Part shown: positions 2,329 through 64,000 of the stretch, one piece after another
How positions within the stretch are numbered: the stretch's first letter is position 1
Layout of the letters: the number at the start of each line of letters is the position of its first letter
Assembly (NCBI GenBank): GCA_020635715.1
Contig: JACJZG010000008.1
Location: 91,553 to 155,552 of the forward strand
DNA from: Flavobacteriales bacterium
Lineage (GTDB): Bacteria > Bacteroidota > Bacteroidia > Flavobacteriales_F > PHOS-HE28
Direction of reading: 5' to 3'
DNA: 64,000 nucleotides
The notes under the pieces: generated by a model
Databases searched by the model: none
What the model was told of the DNA's origin: nothing
The model's input: only the letters and a program-made list of their open reading frames with translations
Program-made: the position numbers and the translations under genes

Positions 2329-2334
2329 GGTCCC

Positions 2335-4542: not shown

Positions 4543-4721
4543 GGGGGTGGAATGTTCGGCGAAGTTGGTTGTGCGGAAGGAGAACAAGCAAGCGCCCTCC
4601 CGAGCCAAGGTTCCACGGAAATGGGAATGCTTTTCCCCGCTCCGGGACTCGGTGGAGCGACTTTCCGTGTTCGATCGACCAGCGGCACGGAGATGGACGT
4701 GGCACCGCAAACACCAACCCC

Positions 4722-4886
4722 ATGAACAACCTGGTCAACATCATCATCGTGCTGCTCATCGTCGGCTGGCTCATCGGCTACATCGGGTTCGGCGCCATGG
4801 TCGGCAACTTGATCCACATCCTGCTCATCCTCGCCGTGGTCGCCATCGTCATCCGGCTCGTCTCTGGTGGTAAGGCGAAGTTGTGA
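4722..4886 (+). CDS. Small two-TM membrane protein (lmo0937-like family)
   Basis: ORF 4569..4886 trimmed to MNNLVNIIIVLLIVGWLIGYIGFGAMVGNLIHILLILAVVAIVIRLVSGGKAKL. This gives two hydrophobic helices with the family-typical IHILL..A....I pattern. Confidence 0.6.
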   Translation: MNNLVNIIIVLLIVGWLIGYIGFGAMVGNLIHILLILAVVAIVIRLVSGGKAKL

Positions 4887-4895
4887 GCCCCTTAC

Positions 4896-6506
4896 ATGAA
4901 GCCCATGATGCAGCGGCCCATGCCGCGCGTGCTCACAGTACTGGGCGTCGTCCTTGTCGTGGGCTGGGCCGCCTTCGAGGCGCTGAGCTCGTGGGCCGCC
5001 CACGAGGTGAGGGAGCGGTTGCACCATGCCGCCAATGCCTGCGGGGCACGCTGGGTTGATGCCGACAGCTGCATCATCCACATTGACCTCTGGTCCGGTG
5101 AGCTGCTCCTGACCGGCATGCGCTGGAGGCGGGGTGTGGTCCAACCCGACCACGGCATGTCGATCACGGGATACGTGGATACATTGGAGATCAGTGACGT
5201 CTCCTACAAAGCCCTTCTTTTTGATCGGAAGGTGCACGCCGCCGGCCTGTTCGTGCGTGTTAAGGATCTCATGGTCCAGCGCGGATCCGCCAGCACAGCC
5301 TCACCGAAGGAACGTTCAACCCGCTTCCAACATTTCGTGGTCGATGACCTCGACATCCGCCTGCGCTCAACGAGCGTTCGGATGGAGGACTCGATCCGGA
5401 TAGACCTCGACGACCTTGCGATGAACGGTATGGACCTCGCCCTTGACCTTCGGGATACCACCTGGGACGCCGGGCGTTGTGAAGCGCACTTGTCGGCCCT
5501 TCGCATCGCTCCACTGGCCGACTCCATTCTGACCGTTGAACGGATGCTGCTAAGCGATGCTGCACAGCGATGCGAGCTGCACGGTCTGCGTTTCGGTCCC
5601 GATGATGTGGTGACGCCATCCACGGCACTGGCGCTGGAGCGGGATGTCGTGAGCGGTCACTTCGAGCGGATCACGGTGGAAGGCATTGACCCGAACACCC
5701 TGATGCGGGGCGTGTTGCACGCGCGATCCATCCACATCGGGCCCGCTGACCTGGAGGTGGCGCGGGACAAGTCCCGTCCCGATCCGTCCTTCCGCCATAA
5801 GCCGCTCCCAGCGCGGCTGCTGCGTCTTTTGACGCCCGGTGCGGGCTGCGATTCGTTGATCGTCGAGCGGATGAGCGTGCATTACCATGAACAGGTCGAT
5901 CCGGCGCGCGGTTTCGCGTTCATTCCGTTCGACAGCATCCATGGGGTGTTGACCAGCGTCCAGCACCAACGGATGGATACGCTGCGTGTACTGGCAGCCG
6001 GCATGGTCTTCGGCCGCACCCCGTTGACCTTGGATCTGCGCGCAGCCATCGGCGACAGCACGGATCGGATGCGCGTGGAGGCCCATGTCGGTCGGCTTTC
6101 CTTCCCGACCTTGAACCGGGTGTTGCCCCCACTGACCGGGCTGGCCACGCCCGAAGGAAGGCTCGATACGTTGATCATGCGGATGGGTGGTGGGGATCGT
6201 TCGGCGAGCGCCAGTTGCTGGATGCGCTATGATGGCCTCAAGGTCGAGGTCCGTCCTTCCCGCCGTGAACAGGATCCAGCCCTGTTCGATCCCGTTTTCG
6301 ACGCCCTGCTCAATGCGATCGTGAAGCGGGAGCGGAAAGGTCATCGCAAGGATGACGGGTGGACGAACTACACCGTTGAACGTCGCAGGGACCGGGCCGT
6401 CTTCAACTACCTCTGGGCCGGTGTGCGGGAAGGGGCGAAGGCCAGCATGTTGCCCGGCGTGGTCCTGAACGCCACTTCGAACAAGTCGCGCTCCCGTGGT
6501 AAATGA
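4896..6506 (+). CDS. N-terminally membrane-anchored repetitive beta-rich protein (AsmA/DUF748-like, tentative)
   Basis: 536-aa ORF with a single N-terminal TM segment (VLTVLGVVLVVGWAAF). It is followed by repeated short amphipathic strand motifs (ISDVSY..LFVRVKDL, DDLDIRLRS, LHGLRFGP, ERITVEGID, SLIVERMSVHY). Confidence 0.6.
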   Translation: MKPMMQRPMPRVLTVLGVVLVVGWAAFEALSSWAAHEVRERLHHAANACGARWVDADSCIIHIDLWSGELLLTGMRWRRGVVQPDHGMSITGYVDTLEISDVSYKALLFDRKVHAAGLFVRVKDLMVQRGSASTASPKERSTRFQHFVVDDLDIRLRSTSVRMEDSIRIDLDDLAMNGMDLALDLRDTTWDAGRCEAHLSALRIAPLADSILTVERMLLSDAAQRCELHGLRFGPDDVVTPSTALALERDVVSGHFERITVEGIDPNTLMRGVLHARSIHIGPADLEVARDKSRPDPSFRHKPLPARLLRLLTPGAGCDSLIVERMSVHYHEQVDPARGFAFIPFDSIHGVLTSVQHQRMDTLRVLAAGMVFGRTPLTLDLRAAIGDSTDRMRVEAHVGRLSFPTLNRVLPPLTGLATPEGRLDTLIMRMGGGDRSASASCWMRYDGLKVEVRPSRREQDPALFDPVFDALLNAIVKRERKGHRKDDGWTNYTVERRRDRAVFNYLWAGVREGAKASMLPGVVLNATSNKSRSRGK

Positions 6507-44721: not shown

Positions 44722-47715
44722 ATGCAGTACGATCACAAGGGCATCGAAGGGAAGTGGCAGGATGAATGGCGCAGACGCGGCACCTACCGCGTGAGCAACG
44801 ATCCATCGAAGCCGAAGTATTACGTGCTGGATATGTTTCCCTATCCCAGCGGGGCAGGCCTGCATGTCGGGCACCCGCTCGGCTACATCGCCAGCGACAT
44901 CGTGGCGCGCTACAAGCGCCTGTGCGGCTTCAACGTGCTGCACCCCATGGGCTACGACAGCTTCGGCCTGCCCGCCGAGCAATACGCCATCCAGACGGGT
45001 CAGCACCCGGCGAAGACCACCGAGGAGAACACCGCGCGCTACCGGCAACAGCTCGACGCCATCGGCTTCAGCTTCGATTGGGAGCGCCAGGTATTCACCA
45101 GCGATCCGTCCTATTACAAGTGGACACAGTGGATCTTCCTGCAGCTCTTCGATAGCTGGTACGATGCCAAGGCCGACAAGGCGAGACCGATCAGCGAACT
45201 GATCGCCTGTTTCGAGAAGGATGGCAGCACGGGCCAGGACACGAGCGTCCTCACCGGCGACATCGAGGAGTTCGTCGGTGGCTTCTCTGCCGATGAGTGG
45301 AACGGCTTCCACGAGGGCACGAAGCAGTTGATCCTCGGCCATTTCCGGCTGGCCTACCGCAGCGAGGCCTGGGTGAACTGGTGTCCTGCCTTGGGCACGG
45401 TGCTCGCCAACGACGAGGTGAAGGACGGCGTGAGCGAACGCGGCGGTCACCCCGTGGAACGCAAGCGGATGCCACAATGGAGCATGCGCATCACCGCCTA
45501 CGCGCAACGGCTGCTCGATGGCTTGGATGCACTGGACTGGAGCGATAGCATCAAAGAAGCACAGCGGAACTGGATCGGTAGGAGTGAAGGGGCGACCGTC
45601 CGTTTCCCACTGGGCGATGACTTCATTGAGGTCTTCACCACACGGCCGGACACGCTCTTCGGTGTCAGCTTCATCACGCTCGCACCGGAGCATGTGCTCG
45701 TGGGCAAGTTCACCACCGCCGACCACAAGGCCGAGGTGATGGCATACGTGGAAAAGGCGAAGAACCGCAGCGAACGCGAGCGCCAGGCCGAGGTGGATAA
45801 GGTGAGCGGCGTGTTCACCGGCAGCTACGCGAAGCATCCGTTCACCGGCGCCGAGGTGCCCGTATGGGTGGGCGATTACGTGCTCGCTGGCTACGGTACT
45901 GGCGCGGTGATGGCCGTGCCCGGCGGCGACCAGCGCGACTGGCGCTTCGCGAAGCACTTCGGCCTGCCCATCATCGCGGTGACCGAGGGTGCTGATGTGG
46001 ATAAGGAGGCCGATGAACGCAAGGACGCGACGATCAGTAGCGAAGGCTTTCTCAAGGGCTTGAAGGTGCCGCAGGCGATCACCCGCGCGATCCAGGAATT
46101 GGAGAAGCTCGGTGCCGGGGAAGGCCGCATCAACTTCCGCCTGCGCGATGCCGCATTCGGCCGCCAACGCTATTGGGGCGAGCCGATCCCGATCTATTAC
46201 AAGGACGAGATACCGTACGCGTTGCCCGAGAGCGAGCTGCCGCTGAAGCTCCCGGAGGTGGACAAGTTCCTGCCGACGGAGGACGGCGAACCACCGCTCG
46301 CGCGTGCCACCAACTGGAACTACCAGGGCCATCCGTTGGAAACGACGACCATGCCCGGTTGGGCCGGCAGCAGCTGGTACTTCCTGCGCTACATGGACCC
46401 GCATAATGCGGAGCGCTTCGCCTCACCCGAGGCCATCAACTATTGGCAGCAGATCGACCTCTACCTGGGCGGCAGCGAGCACGCCACCGGCCACCTGCTC
46501 TACTTCCGCTTCTGGACCAAGTTCCTGCACGACCGCGGCTGGATCCCCTTCGACGAGCCCGCGAAGAAGCTCGTGAACCAAGGGATGATCCAAGGGGTGT
46601 CACGAACAGCATACGTGTACAAGCTCTCCTGGGCAATGATTGCCACAACGGCGGCTTCGTACTCCGGCCCAACCATTCCGTTGAATGCTGCCCCTACGGT
46701 TCTTGTTCCGGAAGAAGTCTATCTCGCGATGAAGGAAGGGACACTGACTGAACAACAAAGTGATCGGCTACATGAGATTGAGAGAGAGGCAACCCGTTTG
46801 GTGAAAGATCAGTTACCTGGTCATGCTGGTAGGTTGTTTGTTCCAGGTGTGGAAGGAGGAGCAGTTGCCTTTCCGATGAATGTGGATATTGACTTGGTTG
46901 ATGAAAAGGGTGTTCTTGATATCGGTAGGTTCAAGTCATGGAGGGCTGAAAATGCGACAACATTGACTTGGGATGACTCGCCTTATGTGTGTGTTCCGTT
47001 TGTCGAGAAGATGTCCAAGTCAAAGTTCAACGTGGTCAACCCCGACGACATCATTTCAAAGTACGGTGCCGACACCCTTCGTCTTTACGAGATGTTCCTG
47101 GGCCCCTTAGAGCAGAGCAAGCCCTGGGACACCAACGGCATCGAGGGCACCTTCCGTTTCCTGCGGAAGTTCTGGAACCTGTTCTTCAGCGGAGACGGTG
47201 TAGCGTCGACCCACGGGGTCGACCTACCCACCGTTACCAATGACCCCCCCACCAAGGCCGAGCTGAAAGTCCTGCACGCCACCCTGAAGAAGGTGAGCGA
47301 GGACATCGAGAAGATGAGCTTCAACACCAGCGTGGCGCAGTTCATGATCGCGGTGAACGAGCTGGGTGCGCTCAAGTGCCACAAGCGCGACATCCTCGAA
47401 CCCATGACCATCGCCCTGGCACCCTTCGCCCCGCACATCGCCGAGGAATTGTGGGAGAAACTGGGTCATGCCGAGAGTATCACCACCGCCGCATGGCCGA
47501 AGTTCGATCCGCAATACCTGGTGGAGGACAACTTCAGCTACCCCATCAGCTTCAACGGAAAGACGCGCCTGCAGCTGGAGTTCCCCATCGCCCTGGGCAA
47601 GGAGGAGGTGGAGGCGGCTGTATTGGCCAACCCAGAGGTACAAGCCAAGCTCGAAGGCAAGGCGCCCAAGAAGGTGATCGTGGTGCCCAAACGCATCGTC
47701 AATATCGTGGTATGA
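44722..47715 (+). CDS. leuS: Leucine-tRNA ligase
   Basis: 997 aa with HIGH-type motif (HVGHPLGY), the CP1 editing region and KMSKS. It has a long insertion just before KMSKS. Confidence 0.97.
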   Translation: MQYDHKGIEGKWQDEWRRRGTYRVSNDPSKPKYYVLDMFPYPSGAGLHVGHPLGYIASDIVARYKRLCGFNVLHPMGYDSFGLPAEQYAIQTGQHPAKTTEENTARYRQQLDAIGFSFDWERQVFTSDPSYYKWTQWIFLQLFDSWYDAKADKARPISELIACFEKDGSTGQDTSVLTGDIEEFVGGFSADEWNGFHEGTKQLILGHFRLAYRSEAWVNWCPALGTVLANDEVKDGVSERGGHPVERKRMPQWSMRITAYAQRLLDGLDALDWSDSIKEAQRNWIGRSEGATVRFPLGDDFIEVFTTRPDTLFGVSFITLAPEHVLVGKFTTADHKAEVMAYVEKAKNRSERERQAEVDKVSGVFTGSYAKHPFTGAEVPVWVGDYVLAGYGTGAVMAVPGGDQRDWRFAKHFGLPIIAVTEGADVDKEADERKDATISSEGFLKGLKVPQAITRAIQELEKLGAGEGRINFRLRDAAFGRQRYWGEPIPIYYKDEIPYALPESELPLKLPEVDKFLPTEDGEPPLARATNWNYQGHPLETTTMPGWAGSSWYFLRYMDPHNAERFASPEAINYWQQIDLYLGGSEHATGHLLYFRFWTKFLHDRGWIPFDEPAKKLVNQGMIQGVSRTAYVYKLSWAMIATTAASYSGPTIPLNAAPTVLVPEEVYLAMKEGTLTEQQSDRLHEIEREATRLVKDQLPGHAGRLFVPGVEGGAVAFPMNVDIDLVDEKGVLDIGRFKSWRAENATTLTWDDSPYVCVPFVEKMSKSKFNVVNPDDIISKYGADTLRLYEMFLGPLEQSKPWDTNGIEGTFRFLRKFWNLFFSGDGVASTHGVDLPTVTNDPPTKAELKVLHATLKKVSEDIEKMSFNTSVAQFMIAVNELGALKCHKRDILEPMTIALAPFAPHIAEELWEKLGHAESITTAAWPKFDPQYLVEDNFSYPISFNGKTRLQLEFPIALGKEEVEAAVLANPEVQAKLEGKAPKKVIVVPKRIVNIVV

Positions 47716-47726
47716 GCGCGCTACTG

Positions 47727-47851
47727 GCTACTGGCTCCTGGCTATTGGCTGGTTCGTGCGCTTCGGCACGTAGGAGCCTGCCTCAAGGCATGGCTGAACT
47801 CCTTTCGCCTTGCGATAAGGGGCCAGTAGCCAATAGCCAGGAGCCAGTAGC
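47727..47851. repeat. 24-bp perfect inverted repeat made of tandem NNNTGGC heptads, with a 77-nt spacer
   Basis: The left arm 47727..47750 (gctactggctcctggctattggct) is the exact reverse complement of the right arm 47828..47851. The left array reads tactggc/tactggc/tcctggc/tattggc. The spacer contains the hairpin cgtgc-gcttcg-gcacg (47755..47770). Confidence 0.9.
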
Positions 47852-47870
47852 AAACAAGCCAGCAGCGCAT

Positions 47871-47886
47871 TGGCACCCCGTTTGCA
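47871..47886 (+). promoter_or_regulatory. Sigma-54 (-24/-12) promoter, TGGCACcccgtTTGCA
   Basis: Matches the TGGCACG-N4-TTGCW consensus at every conserved position except G7, with exact GG-N10-GC spacing. It ends 12 nt before the ATG at 47898. Confidence 0.6.
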
Positions 47887-47897
47887 TTCCCCAGGCC

Positions 47898-48713
47898 ATG
47901 GCACGTTCGACCACCTTCCTGCTGGCCGGTCTCGCCCTGTTGACCATGGGCTTCGGCCAGGCCAAGAACCCTGTGGCCACGACCGCCACGGAGTTCAATC
48001 AATTGCGCGACCTGAAGTTCGATTCCTTCAAGCCGGGCGAGAAGCTGACCTATGTGGTGCACTACGGCTGGCTCAATGCCGGTGAAGCGGTGGTGGAGCT
48101 GAAGGAAGGCACCCGCGACATCGCCGGCCGCAAGGTGTGGGTGGCCACCGGCACGGGCCGCAGCCTCGGCGCCTTCAATACCTTCTACAAGGTGGACGAC
48201 CACTACGAGACCCACTTCGATGCGAAGGGCGTCTTCCCCTATGCCTTCATCCGCCGCGTGAGCGAGGGCGGTTACGAGTTCAGCCAGGACTATGTGTACA
48301 ACCAGGTGAAGGGCGAGGTGACCACCCAGAAGAAGGAAACACACAAGGTGCCCGCCAGCGTCCAGGACATGCTCAGCGCCTTCTACTTCGCCCGCACCAT
48401 CGACTTCGCCAATGCGAAGGAGGGCGACATCTTCACCATCGAGACCTTCATGGACGATGAGCTCTGGCCGCTGCGCATGAAGTACATGGGCAAGGAGACC
48501 ATCAAATTGCGCAACGGCAAGTACCGCTGCCTCAAGTTCCAGCCGGTGGTGCAGGAGGGACGCATCTTCAAGGGCAACGACGACCTGAACGTGTGGATCA
48601 CCGACGACGGCAACCGGATCCCGGTGCTGGCGCAGGCCAAAGTGCTTGTGGGTTCGATCAAGATGGAGCTGTCGGACTACGAGGGGCTGAACCATCCGAT
48701 CGCCAAGGAGTGA
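47898..48713 (+). CDS. DUF3108 domain-containing protein (secreted)
   Basis: ORF 47376..48713 trimmed to MARSTTFLLAGLALLTMGFGQA; the extension overlaps leuS. Family-like pattern LTYVVHYGWLNAGEAVVELKE. Confidence 0.8.
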   Translation: MARSTTFLLAGLALLTMGFGQAKNPVATTATEFNQLRDLKFDSFKPGEKLTYVVHYGWLNAGEAVVELKEGTRDIAGRKVWVATGTGRSLGAFNTFYKVDDHYETHFDAKGVFPYAFIRRVSEGGYEFSQDYVYNQVKGEVTTQKKETHKVPASVQDMLSAFYFARTIDFANAKEGDIFTIETFMDDELWPLRMKYMGKETIKLRNGKYRCLKFQPVVQEGRIFKGNDDLNVWITDDGNRIPVLAQAKVLVGSIKMELSDYEGLNHPIAKE

Positions 48714-48806
48714 CCTTGTGAACCCCACCGGGTGAACAACCCGCCGTGGATAGGATGTGACCGCCGGTGATGGTGGCGCAGGGCCCATGGTGTTCCTTGC
48801 ACTCCC

Positions 48807-50081
48807 ATGGTCTGGTGGAAGAAAGGGTTGGTGGCGTTGGCCGCAACGGGCGGGGTTGGCTTGTTCTTCTTATCCGTGGACATCAGTCCACATGTGGAGT
48901 ACACCCCGGACCCGGAGCCGGTCGCGGTGGAGGACACGATCCCATCCCCTCCGGATGCCTATGGTATCCCGATGGCCGGCTATGTGCTGGAGCATGGCTC
49001 CATGAAACGCGGTGACACTTTCGGTGGCCTGCTGAACGCACGTGGCGTCGATCAGAACCTCATCCACGGTCTGGTCGAGCTCGCACTGCCGCACTTCGAT
49101 GTTCGTCGGATGCGGCTCGGCCATCCCTATGCCTTCATCTTCGACGAGGAGAACACCCTGAGCCCGGAGTACTTCGTGTACGAGGCCGATGCCGTGCATT
49201 ACGTGGTCTTCCACCTGCATGATAGCGTGGGGGTCACCGTGGGTGAGCGACCCGTGAAGGTGGAGGAAAGGAGCATCGCCTGTTCAGTGACGGGTGCGCT
49301 GTACAACGACCTGGCGAGGGTCGGTGCGGATCCGCAGCTCGCCATGCAACTCGCCGATGTCTTCGCCTGGACCGTGGACTTCTACCGGATCCAGAAGGAT
49401 GACATGTTCTCGGTGGTCTACCAGGAGAAGACCGTTGATGGCGAACCCTACGGGGCGCCGGAGATCGTGGGCGCACGCTACATCAGTGGGGGCACCGTGA
49501 GGGAGGCCTACCTCTTCGCCCAAGGCGATGGCAAGGAGTCCTACTATGACGATGAGGGCCGCAGCATGCGCAAGGCCTTCCTGCAGGCGCCGCTCAAGTT
49601 CAGCCGGATCTCCAGTGGCTTCAGCTCCAGACGCCTGCATCCCGTTCAGAAGGTGATGAAAGCACACCTGGGCACGGACTACGCTGCACCCTATGGCACG
49701 CCGATCCTGGCCGTGGGGGATGGCATCGTGGAGAAGGCGGGCCGTACCGGGGGCAATGGCAACTTCGTGAAGATCCGCCACAACGGCACCTACAGCACCC
49801 AATACCTGCACATGCGCAAGATCCTGGTGAAGCAGGGCCAGGCCGTGCAGCAGGGCCAGGTGATCGGGGAGGTGGGGAGCACCGGTCTGGCCACCGGGCC
49901 GCATGTCTGCTTCCGCTTCTGGAAGAACGGCGTGCAGGTGGACCACCGCCGGGAGGAGTTCCCGAACACGGAACCGCTGGATGCGGAACGCATGCCCGCC
50001 TTCGAGGCTTTCAAGGCGCCGGTGCGCGCTGAGCTCTTCGCCGCCGAGAAGGTGGCCAGGGGCCGGGTGGTGAACTTCTGA
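48807..50081 (+). CDS. M23 family metallopeptidase (peptidoglycan DD-endopeptidase type)
   Basis: N-terminal TM segment. HLGTDYAAP (HxxxD) and GSTGLATGPHVCFRF (HxH-type) motifs. Confidence 0.9.
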   Translation: MVWWKKGLVALAATGGVGLFFLSVDISPHVEYTPDPEPVAVEDTIPSPPDAYGIPMAGYVLEHGSMKRGDTFGGLLNARGVDQNLIHGLVELALPHFDVRRMRLGHPYAFIFDEENTLSPEYFVYEADAVHYVVFHLHDSVGVTVGERPVKVEERSIACSVTGALYNDLARVGADPQLAMQLADVFAWTVDFYRIQKDDMFSVVYQEKTVDGEPYGAPEIVGARYISGGTVREAYLFAQGDGKESYYDDEGRSMRKAFLQAPLKFSRISSGFSSRRLHPVQKVMKAHLGTDYAAPYGTPILAVGDGIVEKAGRTGGNGNFVKIRHNGTYSTQYLHMRKILVKQGQAVQQGQVIGEVGSTGLATGPHVCFRFWKNGVQVDHRREEFPNTEPLDAERMPAFEAFKAPVRAELFAAEKVARGRVVNF

Positions 50082-50241
50082 GGACCGGTCCGGGGAGCGC
50101 CGACCCTCCTTCGGCACATGAACGGTCACCCGATCCATCGATGTTGGCCAGTCGTTCGTCGAAGCCTGGTGATCCTGTGTCGAGTTCCTGGCACTTCCGG
50201 GGATCGGGCCCCGTAGACAGCCGACACCAGATCACATCCCC

Positions 50242-50373
50242 ATGGAAACGAAGTACCGCACCCTCCTGCAAGCCGCTGTGATGATCCTCATCCTCGCGGT
50301 GGTCATTATCAACCACAGCAGCGAGAAGGCCGAACAGGCCATCGCCCAGAAGACGAGCCACGCGCACCGCTGA
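50242..50373 (+). CDS. Possible 43-aa single-TM peptide (weak call)
   Basis: My translation is METKYRTLLQAAVMILILAVVIINHSSEKAEQAIAQKTSHAHR. It is the only plausible ORF in a 310-nt gap, with no family support. Confidence 0.25.
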   Translation: METKYRTLLQAAVMILILAVVIINHSSEKAEQAIAQKTSHAHR

Positions 50374-50391
50374 GCGGGCCTTGCAGATCGA

Positions 50392-51264
50392 TCAAGGCTG
50401 CCATTCGGGACGGTTGAACCGAAGCCGTTCCAGCCGTTCATCACCCATGCCGATCGCGGCACGGCGTTCTGCATGGCCGGGTAACATATCTTCCGGACGC
50501 AATCCCGAAAAGATCCCATAGGGGAACTTCTCGTTGCGGTGGTTCGCAAGGTCATCGAACGGTATGGCGTAGAACACGGGATAGACCAGGCCTCGCTTCA
50601 ACCAGCGTTTGAATGCCTTTTCATTCGCCGTTGTCAGCTCCGTGGAACAGTGTATGATGAATGTTTCGAACTCAGAATTGATGCCGTATTCCGCGATGGA
50701 AGGAACTTGAAGCTCCCCGTTCAAGAATCGCTTCAAGAGTGCATCATGTTCCGCGATCAGCGAGGCATAGCGTGCTGTTCGGGTTTCCGTATCACCGGGG
50801 TTCTCAACCATGGCCTGATGTCGTCGGTTCAGCTCCGTTGTCGGTGTCGGTATCCCCGGGTTTGGTCCATTCGCATAATGTTGCATGGTATCCCAGCGAG
50901 CCAGGCAATCGTTCACCACCCGCCCGTACCATGCAGAGTCCAATGCGGTTCGTAGTGCAGGAGGTGCGAAGCTCATCCAGGCAAGATCCGATCGTTGTTC
51001 AACGCTCCGCAAATAGGACCTGTGCGCAGTAGCGGTATCGCCGATCGAGGCCAGGCAAATGGCACGCGCAACGGTCTCTGTAGGCATCAATCCATAGCGC
51101 TTATCCAGCTTGTTGAGCAGGTCAAGCGCTTCGTCGTATCTGCCGCCTACCATGTGCTCCTGCACCACGAGCGATCGCTGATGGTATCGGATGTAGTTCT
51201 GCCCCTGACCACCGACCGTGGCGCACAGCAGATATAGGACAGGCAGGATCCTTCGGTTCCACAT
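50392..51264 (-). CDS. Hypothetical secreted protein
   Basis: 290-aa ORF with signal peptide MWNRRILPVLYLLCATVGG. I recognise no family. Its G+C looks lower than that of the core genes. Confidence 0.65.
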   Translation of the reverse strand: MWNRRILPVLYLLCATVGGQGQNYIRYHQRSLVVQEHMVGGRYDEALDLLNKLDKRYGLMPTETVARAICLASIGDTATAHRSYLRSVEQRSDLAWMSFAPPALRTALDSAWYGRVVNDCLARWDTMQHYANGPNPGIPTPTTELNRRHQAMVENPGDTETRTARYASLIAEHDALLKRFLNGELQVPSIAEYGINSEFETFIIHCSTELTTANEKAFKRWLKRGLVYPVFYAIPFDDLANHRNEKFPYGIFSGLRPEDMLPGHAERRAAIGMGDERLERLRFNRPEWQP

Positions 51265-51306
51265 GGTGCGAATGTTGATCGAAGCTAGGTAGGCCGGGCA
51301 AATGCT

Positions 51307-51408
51307 TCAATGCTCCGCCACCTCCACCCGATCCACGTGGCTGCGGATCAGCTCGATCAGCTCGTCCATGGCCTGTGCGCTGGGCACGTTGCGCTTCACC
51401 ACTTCCTT
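51307..51408 (-). pseudogene. Displaced duplicate of the last 32 codons of ispG
   Basis: 51313..51408 matches 51834..51929 at 90 of 96 positions by hand alignment. The minus-strand frame is preserved (...KEVVKRNVPSAQAMDELIELIRSHVDRVEVAEH, then a stop) but has no upstream gene body. Confidence 0.85.
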
Positions 51409-51412
51409 CTGC

Positions 51413-51805
51413 TCAGTTTTCCAATGAGGCTAGTCCCATTACCGCCAAGGCAAGAACAAGTGCTAGGAAGTATCCAATGCCCCCTCGATACACTGCCAGA
51501 TGATAGGGAGATGCTTGTTTGGAATTCCTGTAACGCCAAGCAATGAGACCCGCGATCACGGGAGCTATGACTACGTTGAATGCGAGACCGATGGAGGCCA
51601 TGCCTGACCACTCCCAGAAAGCGGCCGTCGAAATGATGAGTAATAGTCCTCCGTACATCACGAAGAGAAGGAACACGGACGCGTATGGTGGATCCACAAC
51701 ATGCTTATAGAGCATACCCCGCGCTACGTACAGATAGCACGCAAGCCCCAGCAGCGGCAAGGCGAGATGTATCGCGCAGAACACGACCATTTCTTGCATT
51801 GGCAT
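51413..51805 (-). CDS. 130-aa four-TM membrane protein, unknown function
   Basis: Starts MPMQEMVVFCAIHLALPLLGLACYLYV, with four hydrophobic segments. It is the sole ORF in the AT-richer cassette between the two ispG-tail copies. Confidence 0.65.
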   Translation of the reverse strand: MPMQEMVVFCAIHLALPLLGLACYLYVARGMLYKHVVDPPYASVFLLFVMYGGLLLIISTAAFWEWSGMASIGLAFNVVIAPVIAGLIAWRYRNSKQASPYHLAVYRGGIGYFLALVLALAVMGLASLEN

Positions 51806-51830
51806 TGCGATGATATACTTGGGAACCGAC

Positions 51831-53783
51831 TTACTCCGCGACCTCCACCCAGTCCCCGTGGCTGCGGATCAGCTCGATCAGCTCGTCCACGGCCTGTGCG
51901 CTGGGCACATTGCGCTTCACCACTTCCTTTTCCTTGTACAAGGTGATCACGCCAGGGCCGGTACCCACGTAACCGTAATCGGCATCGGCCATCTCGCCGG
52001 GACCGTTCACGATGCAGCCCATGATGCCGATCTTGATGCCCTTGAGGTGGCTGGTGCGCGCGCGGATCTTCGCGGTCGTCTCCTGTAGGTCGAAGAGCGT
52101 ACGGCCGCAGCTCGGGCAGCTGATGTATTCCGTCTTGCTGGTGCGCGTGCGCGTGGCTTGCAGAATGCCGAAGGCGGTGCGGCAGACGAGGTCCTCACGC
52201 CCACCATCCTCATCGGCGATGAAGATGCCGTCGCCGAGCCCATCGATCAACAACGGGCCGATGTCGGTGCTGCTGTGCAGGACCAGGTCGTCGTTCGTGA
52301 TGGCTCCATAGGCCCGACCGATGATCACGGGCGTATCACATCCGGCATCCATCAACTGTACGAACAAGCTGCGCTGCTCGGCCATGCCGTGCGTGTTGTA
52401 CGTGTCGATCAGGAGCACCGCGGTCGGGTCCGCCTTCAAGGCCGCGATCAACGCATCATCGAGCAAAGGCAAGGTGGCGTGAACGATGTTGAGCTGCGGA
52501 TGTCTTTCCGCTCCGGCCACGTAAGCTGAAGCCTGGTGGAGGGGATAGTGCCGTTCCTTGGTCTTGTCCTTCAGCCAGGTGTCGTGTTCCTGGACGATCC
52601 CTAGTGTTCCAGGTATCGCGAAGTCGATCCGGTTCTTACCGATGAAGGCGTAGTCACAAGCCTGGTCGGTGATGTTCCACTTGTCCAGCGGCACGCTGTA
52701 GCGGTATCCCCAAGCGAAGAGGCTCGCCGGTGTGATCTCCTTCCGGTTGCTCAGGTCGGCCATCACCACCGGTACATGGCGCGCACCGATGTTCAGCACT
52801 TCGTGCACGTGCCTGCGCGTGTGACCGAAGGGATCGATCGGGTAATGATCGATCGGCGGTATGGGATCATGTTCGGCCCGCGTGGCATACCGCGCCACCA
52901 AGGCGCGCGCCACCGGTATCTCGAACTCCGGATCCTCGGTGAGGCTCACGCGAACGGTATCGCCCAGGCCATCCTCCAACAAGGCGCCGATGCCCGCCGC
53001 GCTCTTCACCCGACCGTCCTCGCCATCGCCGGCCTCCGTCACGCCGAGGTGGAGCGGATAGTCCCAGCCTTCCTCCATCATGCGGTGGACAAGAAGGCGG
53101 TAGGCCTGCACCATCACCTGCACGTTGCTGGCCTTCATGCTCAGCACGATGTCGTGATAGCTCTCGTCCCGGCAGATGCGCAGGAATTCGAAGGCGCTTT
53201 CCACCATGCCCTGCGGCGTGTCACCGTAGCGGTTCAGGATCCGGTCGCTGAGGCTGCCGTGGTTGGTGCCGATGCGCATGGCGGTGCCGTGTTCCTTGCA
53301 GATCCGCACCAGCGGCGTGAAGCGTTCCCGGATGCGGGCGAGCTCGGCGTCGTACTGCGCGTCGGTGTACTCGCGCACATCGAACTTCTTCTTGTCGGCG
53401 TAGTTCCCGGGATTCACGCGCACTTTCTCCACGAGGCGCGCAGCGATCTCGGCCGCGTTCGGGGTGAAGTGGATGTCGGCCACCAGCGGTGTATCGAAGC
53501 CCGCCGCCCGCAACTCCTGCTTGATCGCCGCGAGGTTCTCCGCCTCCTTCCTGCTGGGCGCGGTGATGCGCACCAGCTCACAGCCCGCCTCGATCATCCG
53601 GATGCTCTGGGCGACCGTTGCAGCGGTGTCCATGGTATCCGTCGTGGTCATGCTCTGTACCCTGATCGGGTTGTCGCCGCCGATGCCGATGCCGCCGATC
53701 CGCACCTCTCGGGTGCGCCAGCGCTCGTAGCGGGTCAGGCTGGGGCAATAGGTCCACGGGGCGATGGCGGGCTTCACGGACAT
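51831..53783 (-). CDS. ispG: 4-hydroxy-3-methylbut-2-en-1-yl diphosphate synthase (long, insert-containing form)
   Basis: 650 aa in the GcpE family. TIM-barrel N-domain, a large insert, and the C-terminal Fe-S domain (CPSCGRT, GCIVNGPGE). Confidence 0.96.
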   Translation of the reverse strand: MSVKPAIAPWTYCPSLTRYERWRTREVRIGGIGIGGDNPIRVQSMTTTDTMDTAATVAQSIRMIEAGCELVRITAPSRKEAENLAAIKQELRAAGFDTPLVADIHFTPNAAEIAARLVEKVRVNPGNYADKKKFDVREYTDAQYDAELARIRERFTPLVRICKEHGTAMRIGTNHGSLSDRILNRYGDTPQGMVESAFEFLRICRDESYHDIVLSMKASNVQVMVQAYRLLVHRMMEEGWDYPLHLGVTEAGDGEDGRVKSAAGIGALLEDGLGDTVRVSLTEDPEFEIPVARALVARYATRAEHDPIPPIDHYPIDPFGHTRRHVHEVLNIGARHVPVVMADLSNRKEITPASLFAWGYRYSVPLDKWNITDQACDYAFIGKNRIDFAIPGTLGIVQEHDTWLKDKTKERHYPLHQASAYVAGAERHPQLNIVHATLPLLDDALIAALKADPTAVLLIDTYNTHGMAEQRSLFVQLMDAGCDTPVIIGRAYGAITNDDLVLHSSTDIGPLLIDGLGDGIFIADEDGGREDLVCRTAFGILQATRTRTSKTEYISCPSCGRTLFDLQETTAKIRARTSHLKGIKIGIMGCIVNGPGEMADADYGYVGTGPGVITLYKEKEVVKRNVPSAQAVDELIELIRSHGDWVEVAE

Positions 53784-53809
53784 GGGTGTGCGAAGATACC
53801 GGGAGGCGG

Positions 53810-54421
53810 TCAGCCCTTGATCAGGGTTGCGGTGGCGCTGCCATCCACGAAGGTCCAGCCGCTGCTCTCGACCATGGCCCGGAGCACCTTGATGACCTCC
53901 TGCTTGCGGTCCGCCGCCGCACGGAACAGCCCGCTCTCAGCGACCTTGCGCTTGATCACGTTCTTCGCATCGGCCTCCATGCGTGTGTGGTCCTGTGCCG
54001 TGAAGGGGTTGAAGGTCCCCGCCTCCAGGTCATAATAGTCCAGCTCATGGTCGATGGAGAGCACTTCGGGCATGTGCATGCCTTGGAGCGTAACGGTGTG
54101 CCCCGCCTCGTCCACACGCAGATCGAGGCCCTCCAGGTCATAGCCCACGCTCACCCGTGCCTTCACGCGCAGCATCGCTTTCTTCTGGAAGGGCGAGAAC
54201 TGCTTCAACCAATCGAAGCTGGCCTGTGCGTCCCGGTAGGTGTACACCTCGTTGAAGTCGCCTTCCACTGTCACCAACTTCAGCACCGGTCGCATGCGCT
54301 CCAGCAGGACCGTGGCGCTCACCTGTTCCTCGGCGGCTTCCGGTTCATACACCGACCGCGTGATGTAGAACACCAGCAGCCCGACACCCAGGAGCAGCAG
54401 CAGCCCCTTCACCTTGTTCAT
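53810..54421 (-). CDS. DUF4230-like membrane-anchored protein
   Basis: 203 aa with N-terminal TM segment LLLLLGVGLLVFYI. Family-like layout. Confidence 0.65.
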   Translation of the reverse strand: MNKVKGLLLLLGVGLLVFYITRSVYEPEAAEEQVSATVLLERMRPVLKLVTVEGDFNEVYTYRDAQASFDWLKQFSPFQKKAMLRVKARVSVGYDLEGLDLRVDEAGHTVTLQGMHMPEVLSIDHELDYYDLEAGTFNPFTAQDHTRMEADAKNVIKRKVAESGLFRAAADRKQEVIKVLRAMVESSGWTFVDGSATATLIKG

Positions 54422-54435
54422 GCCACAAAGATCGT

Positions 54436-55347
54436 TCAGCCCTGGGCCAATGGGTCGGGCTCCACCACTTCGGCTGCGGGACGCCTGCGCTGCAGCCAGC
54501 CGTTCACGAAGAGGCAGGCGATGATCAAGGCGATGCCGAGGTAGGACCCGCCGCGCATCTTCTCCTCACTGCCCCAGATCAATAGGGCGATGAGGATGGT
54601 GTAGATGGGTTCGAGGTTCACGGTGAGCATCACGGTGAAGGGCGTCAACTGGCGCATGACCAGGATGCCGGCGACGAAGGCGAAGGAGGTGCATATGAGG
54701 CCGAGCAGCAGGTGCCACCCGATGTCGGAGGCGGGCAGTTCCCAGAGCGGTGGTGGCAGGTCGTTCGTGGCCCAGAGGTAGATGCCTATGAGCGCTGCCG
54801 CCCCGCCCATCTCGTAGAAGCTGATCCGCACCGGTTCACCCCGTTTCACCAGCATCGCGTTGATGATGTTGAACCAAGCGCTGAGCAGCGCGCTCACGAC
54901 CCCGATCAGGATGCCGAGCCGATGCTGCGTTTCCAGGCCGAAGATCAGGACCAGTGCCGCGATGACGACGATGCCGAGCACCACCTCGCTCACCAGGACG
55001 CGACGCTTGAACCAGATGGGCTCCAGCAGTGCGGTGAACACGGTGCTCGTGCTGAGGCAGGCCGCGGCGATGCTGGCCGTGCTCACCTTGATCGATCCGT
55101 AGAAGGTGATCCAATGCAGCAGGATGATGACGCTCGTGGCCAGGTAGTGCTTCAGGTCGGGTGTGCGCGGGGAGAGCGAGCGGCGCAGGACCAGCGCACC
55201 GAACGCAAGGCCGGCCATCGCGATGACGATGCGCGTGTAGACCAGGTGCGCTGTGCCCTGCTGGATCAGCTTGCCGAAGATGCCCGTGAAGCCCCAGAGG
55301 AACACGGTGAGGTGCAGCAGGAGCAGCGCGTTGCGGCGGGAGTGCAT
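54436..55347 (-). CDS. EamA/DMT-family transporter
   Basis: Start moved to ATG (MHSRRNALLLLHLTVFLWGFTGIFGKL). Ten hydrophobic segments in two EamA-like halves. Confidence 0.85.
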   Translation of the reverse strand: MHSRRNALLLLHLTVFLWGFTGIFGKLIQQGTAHLVYTRIVIAMAGLAFGALVLRRSLSPRTPDLKHYLATSVIILLHWITFYGSIKVSTASIAAACLSTSTVFTALLEPIWFKRRVLVSEVVLGIVVIAALVLIFGLETQHRLGILIGVVSALLSAWFNIINAMLVKRGEPVRISFYEMGGAAALIGIYLWATNDLPPPLWELPASDIGWHLLLGLICTSFAFVAGILVMRQLTPFTVMLTVNLEPIYTILIALLIWGSEEKMRGGSYLGIALIIACLFVNGWLQRRRPAAEVVEPDPLAQG

Positions 55348-59151: not shown

Positions 59152-59377
59152 GGGGCGTAAAGGTGACGAATGCTGGGAATTGGGTTCCAGCTGGACTGGA
59201 CAATGAACCGTGCTGCTATCTCCGGTAAAGTCGAGTTATCCATTCGAACGAAACACCCATTCGTGTGGGGTACCGTCTTTGGCGCAGTCTGCATTGAGGT
59301 TTGTTCGCCGCGATATTTCAACAGGCGACATGCGGGTCGAGATCTTCTTATAGCTTCACAGAACCAACCACTTGATC

Positions 59378-60940
59378 ATGTACTCCATATTCCACCTTCG
59401 GCCTGCAACTATTCTGATCGTTCACTTATTGCTCACAACGGGGCTCACGGCACAGCAACTTTCTGTCACACTCACCGGCTCCATGCACAATGGCTCCGGT
59501 GTGCCCTGTTTCGGGAAGAAGGAGGGGACGATAACCACCACGGTCACGGGCGGAACCGCACCGTACAGCTACCTCTGGAGCAACGGGGAGACCACCGCGA
59601 ACCTGAGCGGGATAGCGGCAGGATTCTACAGCGTTGAAGTGAAGGACGCCGTTGCCGCTGTCGTCAAAGTGGAGATCACCCTTACCGAACCCGAGCCGTT
59701 GAAGGTGAAGCCGACCGTGAGTTCGTTCGATAACGGGGAGAACATCAGCTGCTTCGAGTGCAACAACGGTTGGATACAGACGGGCGCCACGCAAGGCACT
59801 CCCCCGTATACCTACACCTGGGATGATTCACCAAGCACCAGTGCGAACCGCTATGGCCTCGGGCCGAAGGAGTATCAGGTCACCGTTACGGACGCCAACG
59901 GATGTGAAGAAAGTGCGGTGGTCAAGATCACCCAACCTGAACGCTCGGACTGGACCATGGGCGGGAATGCGGGTACGGATCCGGAAACCCAGTACATCGG
60001 CACCAGTGATAACAAGGATCTGGTGTTCAAGGCCAATGGGCAGGAGGGTATTCGTTTGAAAGCGAACGGCGATATCAGCTTGATGGGTACGCTCACCGGC
60101 GATGGCCCTTTGTATCGTCGGGATGATGGGCTGCTCGGCAGCGGCTTCCCGGTGTATCCGGAACGACCGGTGGACCGTTGCCACGGTCTGGGCTCCTATC
60201 CATATTGGGAAACACGGGGTAATGCGTTCCATCAGCTATGCGAAGAAGAGGATCCGCTGCTTGGTACGTTGGCAGAACGTCCGCTCAAGATCATCACCAA
60301 CGGTCAGGAGCGGATCCGGATCACGCACGATGGCAAGGTCGGCATCGGTGAGGCTTATCCAGAAGCAAGGCTCCATGTGAAGGGCGACCTGCTGGTCAGC
60401 ACACCGCATGGTGCCATCCTTAGTACCGCATCCGCTGAGCTCGGTGCAATACTGTGGGCACGCAATGACAATGCGGCTTGGGGGTTATCGATCGACCCCA
60501 CCGGAACGGGCCATATCCTCGGTGATATCAACGATCCGGAAGCGGCCATGTCCTTTAATTATGATCGAGTGACGATCAACAGTAGGTTGGTGATCGGTGA
60601 ACCGACCATTGGTCCTTTCGGGGCCTACCGACTTTTCGTGGACGGTGGGATAGCCTGCCGGGATGTGTTGGTGAAGACCGGGGATTTCCCGGACTACGTT
60701 TTCCAACCGAACTATGCGTTGCTCCCGATCGGTGAGTTCCGGAAGTACATCAGCTCGGAAAGCCACCTGCCGGGCATACCGAGCGCCGCCGAGGTGGACG
60801 CGAAAGGCGGTGTTGAGGTAGGCGACCTGCAAGTGCGCATGCTGCGGGCGCTGGAGGAACAGGCCTTGTACATCCTCCAGTTGGAGGAAAGGCTGAAACT
60901 GGCCGAACAGCGCATCGAAGACCTCAACACCGGGAAGTGA
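59378..60940 (+). CDS. SprB-repeat protein with C-terminal tail-fibre / intramolecular-chaperone-like domain
   Basis: ATG at 59378 (MYSIFHLRPATILIVHLLLTTGLTAQ). Two SprB-type repeats (CFGKKEGTITTTVTGGTAPYSYLWSNG and CFECNNGWIQTGATQGTPPYTYTWDD). The C-terminus DFPDYVFQPNYALLPIGEFRKYISSESHLPGIPSA plus a coiled coil resembles tail-fibre-domain proteins. Confidence 0.75.
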   Translation: MYSIFHLRPATILIVHLLLTTGLTAQQLSVTLTGSMHNGSGVPCFGKKEGTITTTVTGGTAPYSYLWSNGETTANLSGIAAGFYSVEVKDAVAAVVKVEITLTEPEPLKVKPTVSSFDNGENISCFECNNGWIQTGATQGTPPYTYTWDDSPSTSANRYGLGPKEYQVTVTDANGCEESAVVKITQPERSDWTMGGNAGTDPETQYIGTSDNKDLVFKANGQEGIRLKANGDISLMGTLTGDGPLYRRDDGLLGSGFPVYPERPVDRCHGLGSYPYWETRGNAFHQLCEEEDPLLGTLAERPLKIITNGQERIRITHDGKVGIGEAYPEARLHVKGDLLVSTPHGAILSTASAELGAILWARNDNAAWGLSIDPTGTGHILGDINDPEAAMSFNYDRVTINSRLVIGEPTIGPFGAYRLFVDGGIACRDVLVKTGDFPDYVFQPNYALLPIGEFRKYISSESHLPGIPSAAEVDAKGGVEVGDLQVRMLRALEEQALYILQLEERLKLAEQRIEDLNTGK

Positions 60941-63900
60941 TGGCCGGCATAACCACAAGAGGGCGCGGCATCCATCACGGGACCGGCTTGCTCGTGATCG
61001 CGGCCTATTTGTACGCGATCACCCTTTCCGGGCAGACGCAGTTCCCAACACCACCGTTCAACCTGCCTGGGACCACTTGGAACGGTGGCACACATCACTA
61101 CACCGCGTTGCCGGAGATCAATTGCCCGGATGACCCGGAGCCGTCTATGGCGATCACGAGCGATGCCGATGCCGAGTTCGTTTCCGGCACGGCCATACAT
61201 CTGAAGGAGGGCTTCCATGCCGGTGCTTTCAATGGATCCGGGCAGTTCCACGCGTACATCGGTGATGGTTTCGGGGATCCTGCGGCACTCGTGCTCATAT
61301 CGCCCGGTGCGGATACAAGCATTTCTGAAGGGACCGTTCATGTTCATCAATGGGAGAAACTGGAACTCGGGTTGGAGCTTCCAACGCTCTACCAAGCAGC
61401 GGTCGATAGCTTCTTCACACACTACTATTCCAACGGACCGGAAGGACCGGCAACACCGGGTATGGTGGACGCGGTGCACGACCTCAATCCCTATGCGGAC
61501 GATTCGTTGCAGCTGGTGATGATCTTGACCACGCCCTCCGGGCAGCAGACCTTGAAGTGGGGCTTCTTCATGCGGGAGGCGAAATGGGCCGACACGGACC
61601 CCCTGGCGCGGATGGTGGAGGATACGTTGAATGCCTACCATCCTTATCACGTTCGGTTCCGGATAGCCCCGGAAGAGATCGGGCTTTGGCATTTCTCCCT
61701 GCGCGTGAGCGCACCACACACCCTTAGCCCTGAGAACGCACCATTGCCTGTTATCGAGTACCCGCTATATAGCTTCATCTGCGACCCTCCGCTGGCGGAC
61801 AACCATGGATTCCTTCAAGTGAATGGTAACAATCATCGGACACTTCGTTTCGACGATGACACCCATTTCTTCGGCATGGGCGTGAATATGGCCGATCAGA
61901 AACATGGAAACCTGGGAATTCCGGATTCCCTGCCAAAACCACAGGGTTGGTGGTACACCTATTACCAACGCGACCACTCCACCATGTTGCAGACCATGGA
62001 CATGCTGAGCTCTGTGGGTGGTAACTTCATGCGCATGATGCTCTTCAAGAACAGCTTCGCACCGGAATGGGTGAACCTGGGGGTGTACGACCAGTACCTC
62101 AGCCCGCCCATGTGTGCCTGGTCAGAGAGCACGGACAATGATTCGTGCGCCCTTACCTGGACCCCGGATTTCAAAGGCAACGGGCAGTACCAGAGCTGGG
62201 CGTTCGATCGCATGTTGGACAAGGCACGCGAGGCAGGCATCTATATCCAGCTATGTGTCGATCCCAATATGCCCACCGCTGCGTTCGAGAAATATCTCTG
62301 GGGCGACCACCCGCACGTGATCGCTTTCCTCGAACGGACACGGGTGCCGGGTGCACCTTACGACATGAAGCATTACTTCTACGCCGATGCCGACCCAGCG
62401 GTCCAGGACAGCGGTGCTTTCTACTATTGGAAACGCAAGTACAAGTACATCCTGAGCCGGTGGGGCTACTCCGTGAACCTGGCGGTGATCGAGCCCTTCA
62501 ACGAGATGGACCAGCTGCTCACGTATGGGGAGGATGATCTGAACGTAGGTACCTCCGCTTTGCCTGGATGTGAAACAGATGCTCATGGCGATGTTCCGCA
62601 TAACGAGATATGCCGTGAGAACCGGATCGTATGGCCCAACGATCCGCTCATCCCAGGTATCGTGGACCGCTGGTTCACCGATCGATCGGCTTTGTACACG
62701 GACCCGGCATCCATCGGGAACCGATAACCTCTTCGCTTGGGTGATCGAAGGCCGTTCCTGATCGGGTTATACCGGGGCGGTGCCCCACACGGATACGGCC
62801 TTCTACAGGCCCTTACGCAACCCGCTGATCGACCTGAACGACATGCACCAATACGCCTTCCCGAACACGGGCGAGCAGCACCTTCCGGATTGGCGGATCA
62901 AGACCAGCTTCGATGTGGCCCAGAACTTCCGGAACAACTACCCAGCAGGTGCGACCAAGAAACCCTTCGGGCACGGCGAGTACAGCTACAGTACGAACAT
63001 TGTTGCTGGCCCGCCGGGTCATACTGAAAGTTATGAGATCGAAAAGTTCTTCCACAATTATGATGTCTCTTTCCACAATGAACTTTGGGGCCACTGCCTT
63101 CTCTGGCAACTTCGCAACGGGCCTGAGCTGGCACTGGGATCGCGTGTTCTGGTGGGAGGATGCATTGGAGGCACCCCCAGATGACTTTTTCAATAGTTTT
63201 CAGAATGAATTCTCAAATGAAATTGATTCAATAAGTAGGTTGGATGTTGGATTGCAGTATGCTATTCCAATCAAAAATCGTCGACTTCATCATCATTTCC
63301 GGCCTTTGAAGGAACTTTTGGAACACCCGAGTTGGGCATCGTATGATTTCTTCAGTTCTGAGTACAGCGCGCATAAAGTTTTCGATGGCCGGGAACTTAG
63401 TAGCGAGGCACAACGAGATGTCTTAGAGAGTTACTACCTGAAGAGCCTGGATAGCACCGCCGCCATCGGTTGGGTGCATAACCGCAATGCGTGGGTGATG
63501 AAGACCTACTACCTGGATCGCAATACACATAACTTCCTTGCATGCGAAGCGCCAGGACCACCGAGCGATACCCTGAAACTTCCAGGTTTTGCACCGGGAT
63601 CGTACTTTGTATCCTGGTTCCCGACCCGCTTGAACAGTACCTTTCATCCACCCCAGATGGAACTGCAAACGGACTTGGATACGCTGGAGATCCCGTTGGC
63701 CGGTTATTTCGGAGGTGTGAGCAATAACTACCTGGACACCTTGCGGAGTGACTATACCTTCATCATCACGCCGGGACCGTTCATGAAACGCTTGCACCGG
63801 CCGTCGGTTGTGGAACAACCTGTTTCGGCAGGATGGGATTTTGGGCTTTATCCGAACCCCACACGTGACGGATTCTACCTCGCTATGCAGGATGAGGTAC

Positions 63901-64000
63901 CCAAAGAAATAGCCTTGTTCGACCTTGCTGGACGCAGGATCACTCAAGTAGTGAATGTCACCGACCTAATCCATTATTTTTCTGTGGAGCACTTGGCCAT
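60940..64000 (+). pseudogene. Disrupted T9SS-secreted clan GH-A (cellulase-like) glycoside hydrolase gene; 3' end runs off the window
   Basis: One reading frame is split three ways. Frame 1 covers 60940..62727, with a signal peptide and IEPFNEMD (an NE(P)-type acid/base motif). Frame 2 resumes around 62728..63184, with an in-frame TGA at 62759. Frame 3 is open from 63090 to 64000. Deleting one G from the run at 63087..63090 restores ...HNELWATAFSGNFATGLSWHWDRVFWW. The tail WDFGLYPNPTRDGFYLAMQ...IALFDLAGRRI is a T9SS type A C-terminal sorting domain. Confidence 0.7.

Follow-up and report, generated by a model that had tools for sequence, protein, structure and literature searches.

The 3' end of ispG is a recurrent site of single-gene insertion in an uncultured, high-G+C clade of Flavobacteriales

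The stretch of DNA analysed here (the window) comprises 64,000 nucleotides of a Flavobacteriales bacterium (GenBank assembly GCA_020635715.1, contig JACJZG010000008.1, positions 91,553 to 155,552 of the forward strand) and harbours the essential isoprenoid gene ispG (GcpE), followed by an open reading frame (ORF) for a 130-residue membrane protein, ORF130, and by a second, orphaned copy of the ispG 3' end. ORF130 is very probably an insertion behind ispG, accompanied by displacement of the tail of that gene. Comparison with a set of 83 ispG loci further reveals that the ispG 3' end is a recurrent hotspot of single-gene insertion in this uncultured, high-G+C Flavobacteriales clade, which is new information. 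As for the mechanism, we favour, at about an even chance of being right, site-specific recombination in which the ispG 3' end serves as the attachment (att) site.

All coordinates given for the window are positions within it, and ispG, ORF130, the orphan tail and the following gene, ORF290, all lie on the minus strand. ispG (53783–51831) is intact and encodes the long, 650-residue Bacteroidota form of the enzyme (Pfam GcpE, E = 1.2e-129), with 82% amino acid identity to ispG of the nearest GTDB species representative. Its 3' end is duplicated. Copy B (51834–51934), the working last ~96–101 nt of the gene, reads …KEVVKRNVPSAQAVDELIELIRSHGDWVEVAE and is directly followed by the TAA stop codon at 51831–51833, while copy A (51313–51413), the presumed original tail, lies beyond ORF130. 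A repeat search aligned the two over 101 nt at 92% identity, and BLAST returned a 96-nt core with 90 of 96 positions identical (93.75%), in agreement with the hand alignment of an initial annotation made from the sequence. Apart from one weak 41-nt pair at 71% identity, the 64-kb window contains no further direct repeat as long as 40 nt, and the match is therefore not due to chance. The repeat stops at the last sense codon, after which each copy has its own stop. Translation bears out the earlier view of copy B as the true gene end and of copy A as an in-frame orphan: copy B ends in ...RSHGDWVEVAE and a stop, and copy A, in the same frame, in …RSHVDRVEVAEH and a stop, running on in frame through CAT TGA (51307–51312). 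Exactly one ORF lies between the copies, as had also been noted. This ORF130 (51413–51805) has the orientation of ispG, its ATG is the 26th base past the ispG stop after a 25-nt spacer (51806–51830), and copy A begins directly at the ORF130 stop codon.

The copies differ at 6 of the 96 positions. Copy A carries three non-conservative changes (V to M, G to V and W to R) at residues conserved in every functional tail, whereas copy B keeps the GDWVE motif common to all functional tails of relatives. Copy A is also contiguous with the native spacer (51265–51312, the orphan's extra codon and stop and then 42 nt) and with ORF290 (50392–51264; 290 residues, no known domain), which in relatives with an empty site stands immediately behind ispG. 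Because copy A adjoins native DNA and is altered at conserved residues, while copy B retains the consensus, we infer that copy A is the displaced resident tail and that ORF130 was acquired horizontally together with a replacement tail; copy A would then keep the original approach to ORF290. The identity profile of the ispG 3' region shows no discordance of the kind expected from a donor tract.

The filled arrangement recurs in four further, independent assemblies of the same species (L082, L081, L171, which is GCA_041391865.1, and L172), 96–99% identical to the window, and is therefore not an assembly artefact. In L082 a single contig spans both tail copies, and several Logan contigs end inside the repeat, as expected of a real duplication. 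The filled state is thus represented by five assemblies including the window, all of one species, within which no empty allele was seen. Copy A is identical across all same-species contigs; among the species' haplotypes, 4–6 of 96 positions distinguish the two copies, and in the L082/L171 haplotype copy B has the copy-A state at two of the six differing sites. As all haplotypes share the insert and the copies differ at so few positions, the insertion predates the radiation of the species (at ~96% average nucleotide identity), yet is not ancient. A comparison of the window with L171 (~96% identical) over 47000–55300 showed that divergence is strongly mosaic, with no differences over 49391–51676 and 47277–48263, and 20–25% divergence at 48700–49100 (the 5' part of an M23 peptidase gene) and 53900–54100 (a DUF4230 gene). 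The block boundary at 51676 falls within ORF130. This mosaic points to frequent homologous exchange.

The initial annotation had predicted that relatives with an empty site would show ispG followed directly by the downstream sequence, and such sites exist. In L089 the ORF290 homologue begins 82 nt past ispG; the gene order in L186 is DUF4230–ispG, 94 nt, ORF290 homologue and then M23; and in L189/L190 the gap from ispG to the ORF290 homologue is 39 nt. ORF130 is absent from each of them. Among the 83 loci ORF130 stands behind ispG only in the window's own species, and universal synteny between the two genes, named earlier as a finding that would speak against integration, is not what we see.

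The composition of ORF130 is atypical as well. At 52.6% its G+C content is the lowest of the 56 ORFs scored in the window (mean 62.0 ± 2.9%), and its G+C at third codon positions (GC3) is 0.58 vs 0.85 for ispG. The AT-richer cassette described in the initial annotation is therefore real, but the shift is broader than the cassette: with 56% G+C and a GC3 of 0.63, ORF290 is low as well, and the AT-richer block reaches beyond the insert. An AlphaFold2 model of ORF130 is a plain four-helix bundle (mean predicted local distance difference test score, pLDDT, of 83), in keeping with the four helices read from the sequence at the outset. The model has no fold match in the PDB at E <= 0.001, and ORF130 has no NCBIfam and no PADLOC match; a candidate assignment as YesK-like protein (PF14150) was rejected, with 18.9 bits falling below the Pfam gathering cut-off of 25.2 (E = 0.0018). 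A profile search collected 387 clusters (50% identity) of 125–135-residue proteins with an invariant W-x-W-S-G-M-A-S, a family for which there is no Pfam or NCBIfam model. The neighbours of this uncharacterised family are heterogeneous housekeeping genes with no conserved synteny, and the next best homologue of ORF130 is 43% identical. Two of the closest homologues (~42% identity) directly adjoin tyrosine integrases in mobilizable elements, a neighbourhood that the initial annotation had suggested looking for. One of these elements carries a relaxase and MobC and is inserted at a tmRNA gene, the other lies at tRNA-Glu in a Runella genome, and the integrases have Arm-DNA-bind_5, Phage_int_SAM_5 and Phage_integrase domains. 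Scans of viral contigs, phages and plasmids for the family gave one weak match only, on a Hymenobacter plasmid.

ORF130 is uncalled in the NCBI assembly of the sister genome L171, where no gene is placed between ispG and ORF290, and is called as only 100 residues in contigs of the Joint Genome Institute (JGI). The frame is nevertheless intact in both haplotypes of the species. Over its first 44 codons (51676–51805, minus strand) the haplotypes differ by 8 non-synonymous and 2 synonymous changes, vs 10 and 54 in ispG, and constraint on the N-terminus of ORF130 therefore looks weak. Either the N-terminal helix is under relaxed or diversifying selection, or else the true start is Met31. Considering the 25-nt gap, with no terminator-like or promoter-like site in it, ORF130 is plausibly read from the ispG transcript. 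Neither Sigma-70 promoters nor intrinsic terminators were found between ispG, ORF130 and ORF290, and the Bacteroidota -7 motif TAnnTTTG is absent near the ispG locus.

Our comparison goes beyond the initial annotation in two respects, namely that the event is recurrent in relatives and that the flanking gene ORF290 may itself be an older insertion. In L088, a 340–355-residue aspartyl-protease-like gene (Pfam Asp_protease_2, E = 2e-12) begins 16 nt past ispG, and 40 nt past this gene lies an orphan ispG tail that has decayed and lost an internal segment (…AVDEL..R.S.GDWVEAVES, then stop), followed by the ORF290 homologue. The L088 orphan is found by BLAST at E = 2e-5, with a local alignment score of 47 vs 29 for the next best in the locus, and z of ~10 vs shuffled sequences. 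Its C-terminal codons are closer to the working tails of L089 and L186 (…GDWVEAVE.) than to that of L088 itself (…GDWVEESE, then stop), and it therefore looks as a displaced original should. The 5' limits of the L088 and window orphans fall within ~6 nt of the same point (AAGGAAGTGG). In L189/L190, a separate scan of the locus found an orphan half-tail immediately behind the stop codon of the ORF290 homologue; it has 36/49 ungapped identity, scores 46 vs 18 ± 2.7 for shuffles and is the best non-self match in the locus. The orphans measure ~96–101 nt in the window, ~90 nt in L088 and ~50 nt in L189. When each of the 83 ispG loci was scanned with its own tail, well-supported orphans occurred in this clade only; matches in L021, L040 and L074 were marginal, lay inside unrelated coding sequence and were treated as chance.

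A fourth gene, ORF278, occupies the same position between ispG and ORF290 in L187/L188, where the close relative L186 is empty; the ORF290 homologues of L186 and L187/L188 are 85% identical. Two candidate tail relics in L187 were rejected, one upstream of ORF278 with a score of 31 that is below the locus background of 36–40, and one distal to ORF278 that is a stretch homologous to a palindrome after the L186 stop, the tail portion adding nothing. A relationship between ORF278 and ORF290 was likewise not accepted, with just faint collinear similarity (E = 0.14). The palindrome in L186 (positions 4455–4492 of that locus) has a perfect 19-bp stem and lies over the ispG stop codon (GGGGGGGTAGTAGTGATCG / CGATCACTACTACCCCCCC), and it is its degraded form that lies distal to ORF278 in L187. 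An 11-mer, GTATA[T/C]CATCG, is present 8–13 nt past the ispG stop both in the window (51809–51819, minus strand) and in the unrelated L187 insert (4775–4785); the species' other haplotype has GTAAATCATCG at this position, and the 11-mer could be either chance or a common cassette-end motif. L187 is unusual in ispG itself (2278–4767; GCA_035910415.1, JAMHXM010000125.1), which encodes 829 residues owing to an in-frame insertion of ~175 residues after residue 307, with a DUF559 / Vsr-like endonuclease domain (Pfam E = 2e-31). Without this insertion, the protein is 96% identical to L186 ispG, so that an endonuclease domain here resides inside an essential gene.

ORF290 is possibly an older insert at the ispG 3' site, as judged from its atypical composition and from its absence in the more distant L002, where ispG is followed by a 43-aa ORF and then M23, with both flanks conserved. 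The half-tail past the ORF290 homologue of L189/L190 is further evidence in this direction. No orphan tail was found past ORF290 in the window, L088, L089, L186 or L187. In L090 (GCA_019638075.1) the ORF290 homologue is split into ORFs of 95 and 161 residues (5624–6486) and lies beside M23, away from ispG; relative to L090, ~42 kb of the window order (9.5–51.2 kb) is rearranged. A relationship between ORF290 and the other 291-residue gene of the window was ruled out, the two being unrelated.

If the insert arose by site-specific recombination, the incoming DNA would have supplied the final ~96 nt of ispG anew, together with a stop codon, and the essential gene would have stayed whole thanks to this replacement end. 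The resident tail would have been pushed to the far side of the insert, to decay as a non-functional orphan before ORF290, and the two tail copies would correspond to attL and attR. The insert itself could be the remnant of a larger integrase-bearing element, similar to a cis-mobilizable element (CIME), or a non-autonomous mini-element moved in trans, and the same ispG site would have been used repeatedly in the clade with different cargo. The junction expected of the empty site is the ispG body joined to …GAGCATTGAAGCATTTGCC, and excision would be expected to yield a circular junction of the ORF130 3' end, one tail and then TAAGTCGGTTCCC. In favour of this reading, the same gene end has been used in three or four lineages with a different cargo each time, the 5' limits of two independent events nearly coincide, the 3' limit of the repeat is exactly the last sense codon, and the cargo family is linked to integrase elements. 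We infer the recombinase, the direction of displacement and co-transcription, beside a repeat, an insertion polarity, a recurrence, a foreign composition and an integrase-element link of the family that are themselves observed.

Several observations weigh against a recombinase. No integrase, excisionase, other element gene or debris of such genes lies in or near the insert; the window has no match to the two integrases tested and no other copy of the cassette in its 64 kb; and an integrase is adjacent to ispG in none of the 83 loci, for which sampling is limited. Within the ORF130 family, an integrase is present in only 2 of ~31 non-redundant contexts. No parent element using an ispG att site was found, and scans of viral contigs were empty, a degenerate tail pattern giving seven matches of which none is related to ispG. 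All four inserts are single ORFs, which is unexpected for large elements that decayed independently. The L189 orphan is only ~50 nt, so that a fixed 5' boundary does not hold throughout, an orphan tail in L187 lacks statistical support, and six differences in 96 nt cannot reveal a crossover point. An integrase-like fragment 5.7 kb from ispG in L023 was discarded as a candidate, as it shows no composition shift and is not adjacent to ispG. The initial proposal of an integration scar consequently stands with respect to insertion, supported by the empty sites and the distribution of ORF130, but does not extend to an established recombinase mechanism; a recombinase-independent route fits the same structure. 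It seems unlikely to us that this Flavobacteriales clade has a gene-capture platform with the last ~96 nt of ispG as its attachment site. Such a platform would take up promoterless single-gene cassettes behind ispG in succession (ORF130, the aspartyl-protease-like gene, ORF278 and originally ORF290), each insertion regenerating the gene end and pushing older cassettes and tails distally, with a recombinase encoded elsewhere or none at all. It would be integron-like in function, without attC hairpins or a linked integrase, and its host site would be an essential, constitutively transcribed gene.

The main rival to site-specific recombination is homology-anchored illegitimate recombination (HFIR), the 'C-terminal displacement' known from arrays of Rhs, contact-dependent inhibition (CDI) and type VI secretion system (T6SS) genes, which we consider possible though not what we would expect. 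Here, linear donor DNA with the cargo already behind ispG would have paired with the conserved ispG of the recipient, and its far, non-homologous end would have been joined illegitimately ~96 nt upstream of the recipient stop, duplicating the tail with no need for a dedicated recombinase. This accommodates the missing recombinase in the window and at the 83 loci as well as the variable orphan lengths. A partial match (AG.A.AAGG) at the cargo/orphan junction could represent microhomology, recombination in the population is heavy, as the blocks of 0% beside 20–25% divergence against L171 illustrate, and an origin by the same logic has been proposed for orphaned 3' regions strung together at T6SS and Rhs loci (PMC5361080). 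However, hits on the same gene end in three or four lineages, with nothing similar elsewhere in 64 kb, find no explanation in this model, and neither do two independent orphans that start within ~6 nt of each other; it also requires a donor with ORF130 25 nt behind a near-identical ispG, of which no genome is on record, and the reported frequency of the process is orders of magnitude below that of homologous exchange (PMC5361080). RecA-mediated pop-out and pop-in, in which a 521-bp circle formed between the repeats re-enters a related ispG tail by a single homologous crossover, is a quite improbable alternative, and would make the window copy a secondary arrival rather than the primary event. 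While 96 nt at 94–96% identity suffice for homologous recombination, and both the copy-A states in copy B of L082/L171 (suggestive of exchange or gene conversion) and the population mosaic agree with it, this route leaves unexplained the origin of the first tail-plus-cargo unit and the differing cargos, lacks an empty allele in the species, and needs a 521-bp circle to travel without a known transfer route.

An ancestral position of ORF130 behind ispG, with later loss in relatives and a repeat that arose by local tandem duplication without foreign DNA, is highly improbable. Every genome of the species does have the gene, and deletion between the repeats would give a clean empty site, but tandem duplication of the tail with ORF130 predicts two copies of ORF130, and the gene is the strongest compositional outlier in the window, is absent at all other 80+ ispG loci, gives way to other genes in the same slot in L088 and L187, and belongs to a family without conserved synteny. 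We attach even less credence to an integron-type cassette, a transposon with a long target-site duplication or an assembly artefact, for all that a promoterless single ORF in the orientation of its upstream gene, with direct repeats on both sides, superficially fits them. The lack of a hairpin in the tail rules out an attC-type site (folding of either copy on either strand is no better than that of shuffles, with z of -0.4 to +1.2), and the window has no match to IntI or a tyrosine recombinase, the upstream gene being ispG. For a transposon, there are no inverted repeats bounding 51414–51833, the only ORF is ORF130 with no transposase, and 96–101 nt is far beyond known target-site duplications. 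As to an artefact, five independent assemblies agree and the copies differ at six positions.

Our literature search found no att site reported for ispG, while several known systems offer partial parallels. Prophage e14 in E. coli icd leaves a 163-bp pseudo-icd' (PMC6379469), and like the ispG insert it (as well as phage 21) is integrated in the 3' end of a housekeeping or essential gene, with a replacement end and a displaced pseudo-fragment; a repeat of ~100–160 nt with few substitutions matches the ispG picture. In contrast, e14 is a ~15-kb prophage with its own integrase, whereas the ispG insert is 0.5 kb with one gene and no recombinase. CIMEs retain attL and attR but no longer have genes for integration and transfer, and in streptococci new elements of the ICESt1 family enter an att site that holds the 3' end of fda or of tRNA genes, building arrays (PMC5704250). 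Several features of CIMEs are found here, in that direct repeats flank the insert, ispG is intact via a replacement end and relatives have empty sites, and a comparable array by tandem accretion may be present as ispG, ORF130, tail, ORF290 and, in L189, a further tail. CIMEs are, however, recognised through related integrative and conjugative (ICE) or integrative and mobilizable (IME) elements with the same att site, whereas no ispG parent was found and each unit here is a single ORF. In the tycheposon islands of Prochlorococcus, beside tRNA genes, newer arrivals push older ones distally and leave partial target copies, much of it without integrases (bioRxiv 10.1101/2020.12.28.424599). The likeness lies in repeated integration at one conserved gene end; the tycheposons differ in having tRNA targets, tyrosine recombinases of their own and islands of many kb, compared to a protein-coding target and an 'island' of 0.5–1.5 kb. 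Lastly, C-terminal displacement arrays of Rhs, CDI and T6SS effector-immunity loci comprise a conserved body and strings of orphaned 3' ends, each with its following gene and no integrase (PMC5361080), much as orphaned 3' fragments in the window, L088 and L189 lie downstream and are each followed by another gene. There the displaced part is a variable toxin domain with an immunity gene, whereas the ispG tail is conserved and ispG is a metabolic enzyme; the cargos at the ispG site have no toxin, immunity or defence signature in PADLOC, Pfam or NCBIfam.

The wider locus reads, on the minus strand, DUF4230 (54421–53810, directly preceding ispG), ispG/GcpE, the 25-nt spacer, ORF130, copy A, 42 nt and ORF290. 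Beyond ORF290 is a distal flank (48807–50373, plus strand) that is conserved in relatives and convergent with the ispG operon, consisting of the M23 peptidase gene (48807–50081) and a 43-residue ORF with a single transmembrane segment (50242–50373). The latter has the same position beside the M23 peptidase gene in L002 and L090 and is likely a real small protein gene. No known RNA families were found in 50000–54500, and no tRNA or tmRNA genes within the 64-kb window. A second compositionally atypical gene block lies at 59372–63947 (G+C of 0.53–0.58 and GC3 of 0.54–0.70, vs window means of 0.62 and 0.74), and may be another acquired region at the window edge.

ORF130 is missed or shortened by existing annotations, and its family of ~390 clusters is without a Pfam or NCBIfam model. 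Should the ispG 3' end prove to be a genuine attachment site, a protein-coding gene would join the small number of targets used by integrative elements in Bacteroidota. The locus would then also offer a very small and clean model, a 521-bp unit with a single gene and two att copies, for studies of element decay or of the movement of non-autonomous cassettes. If instead no recombinase was involved, the locus would be a natural example of foreign-gene capture by homology anchoring behind a housekeeping gene, a process that has until now been inferred mainly at toxin loci. On either reading, an accessory gene would be wired to the transcript of an essential isoprenoid gene, in an arrangement whose 96-nt repeats should permit precise loss of the cassette.

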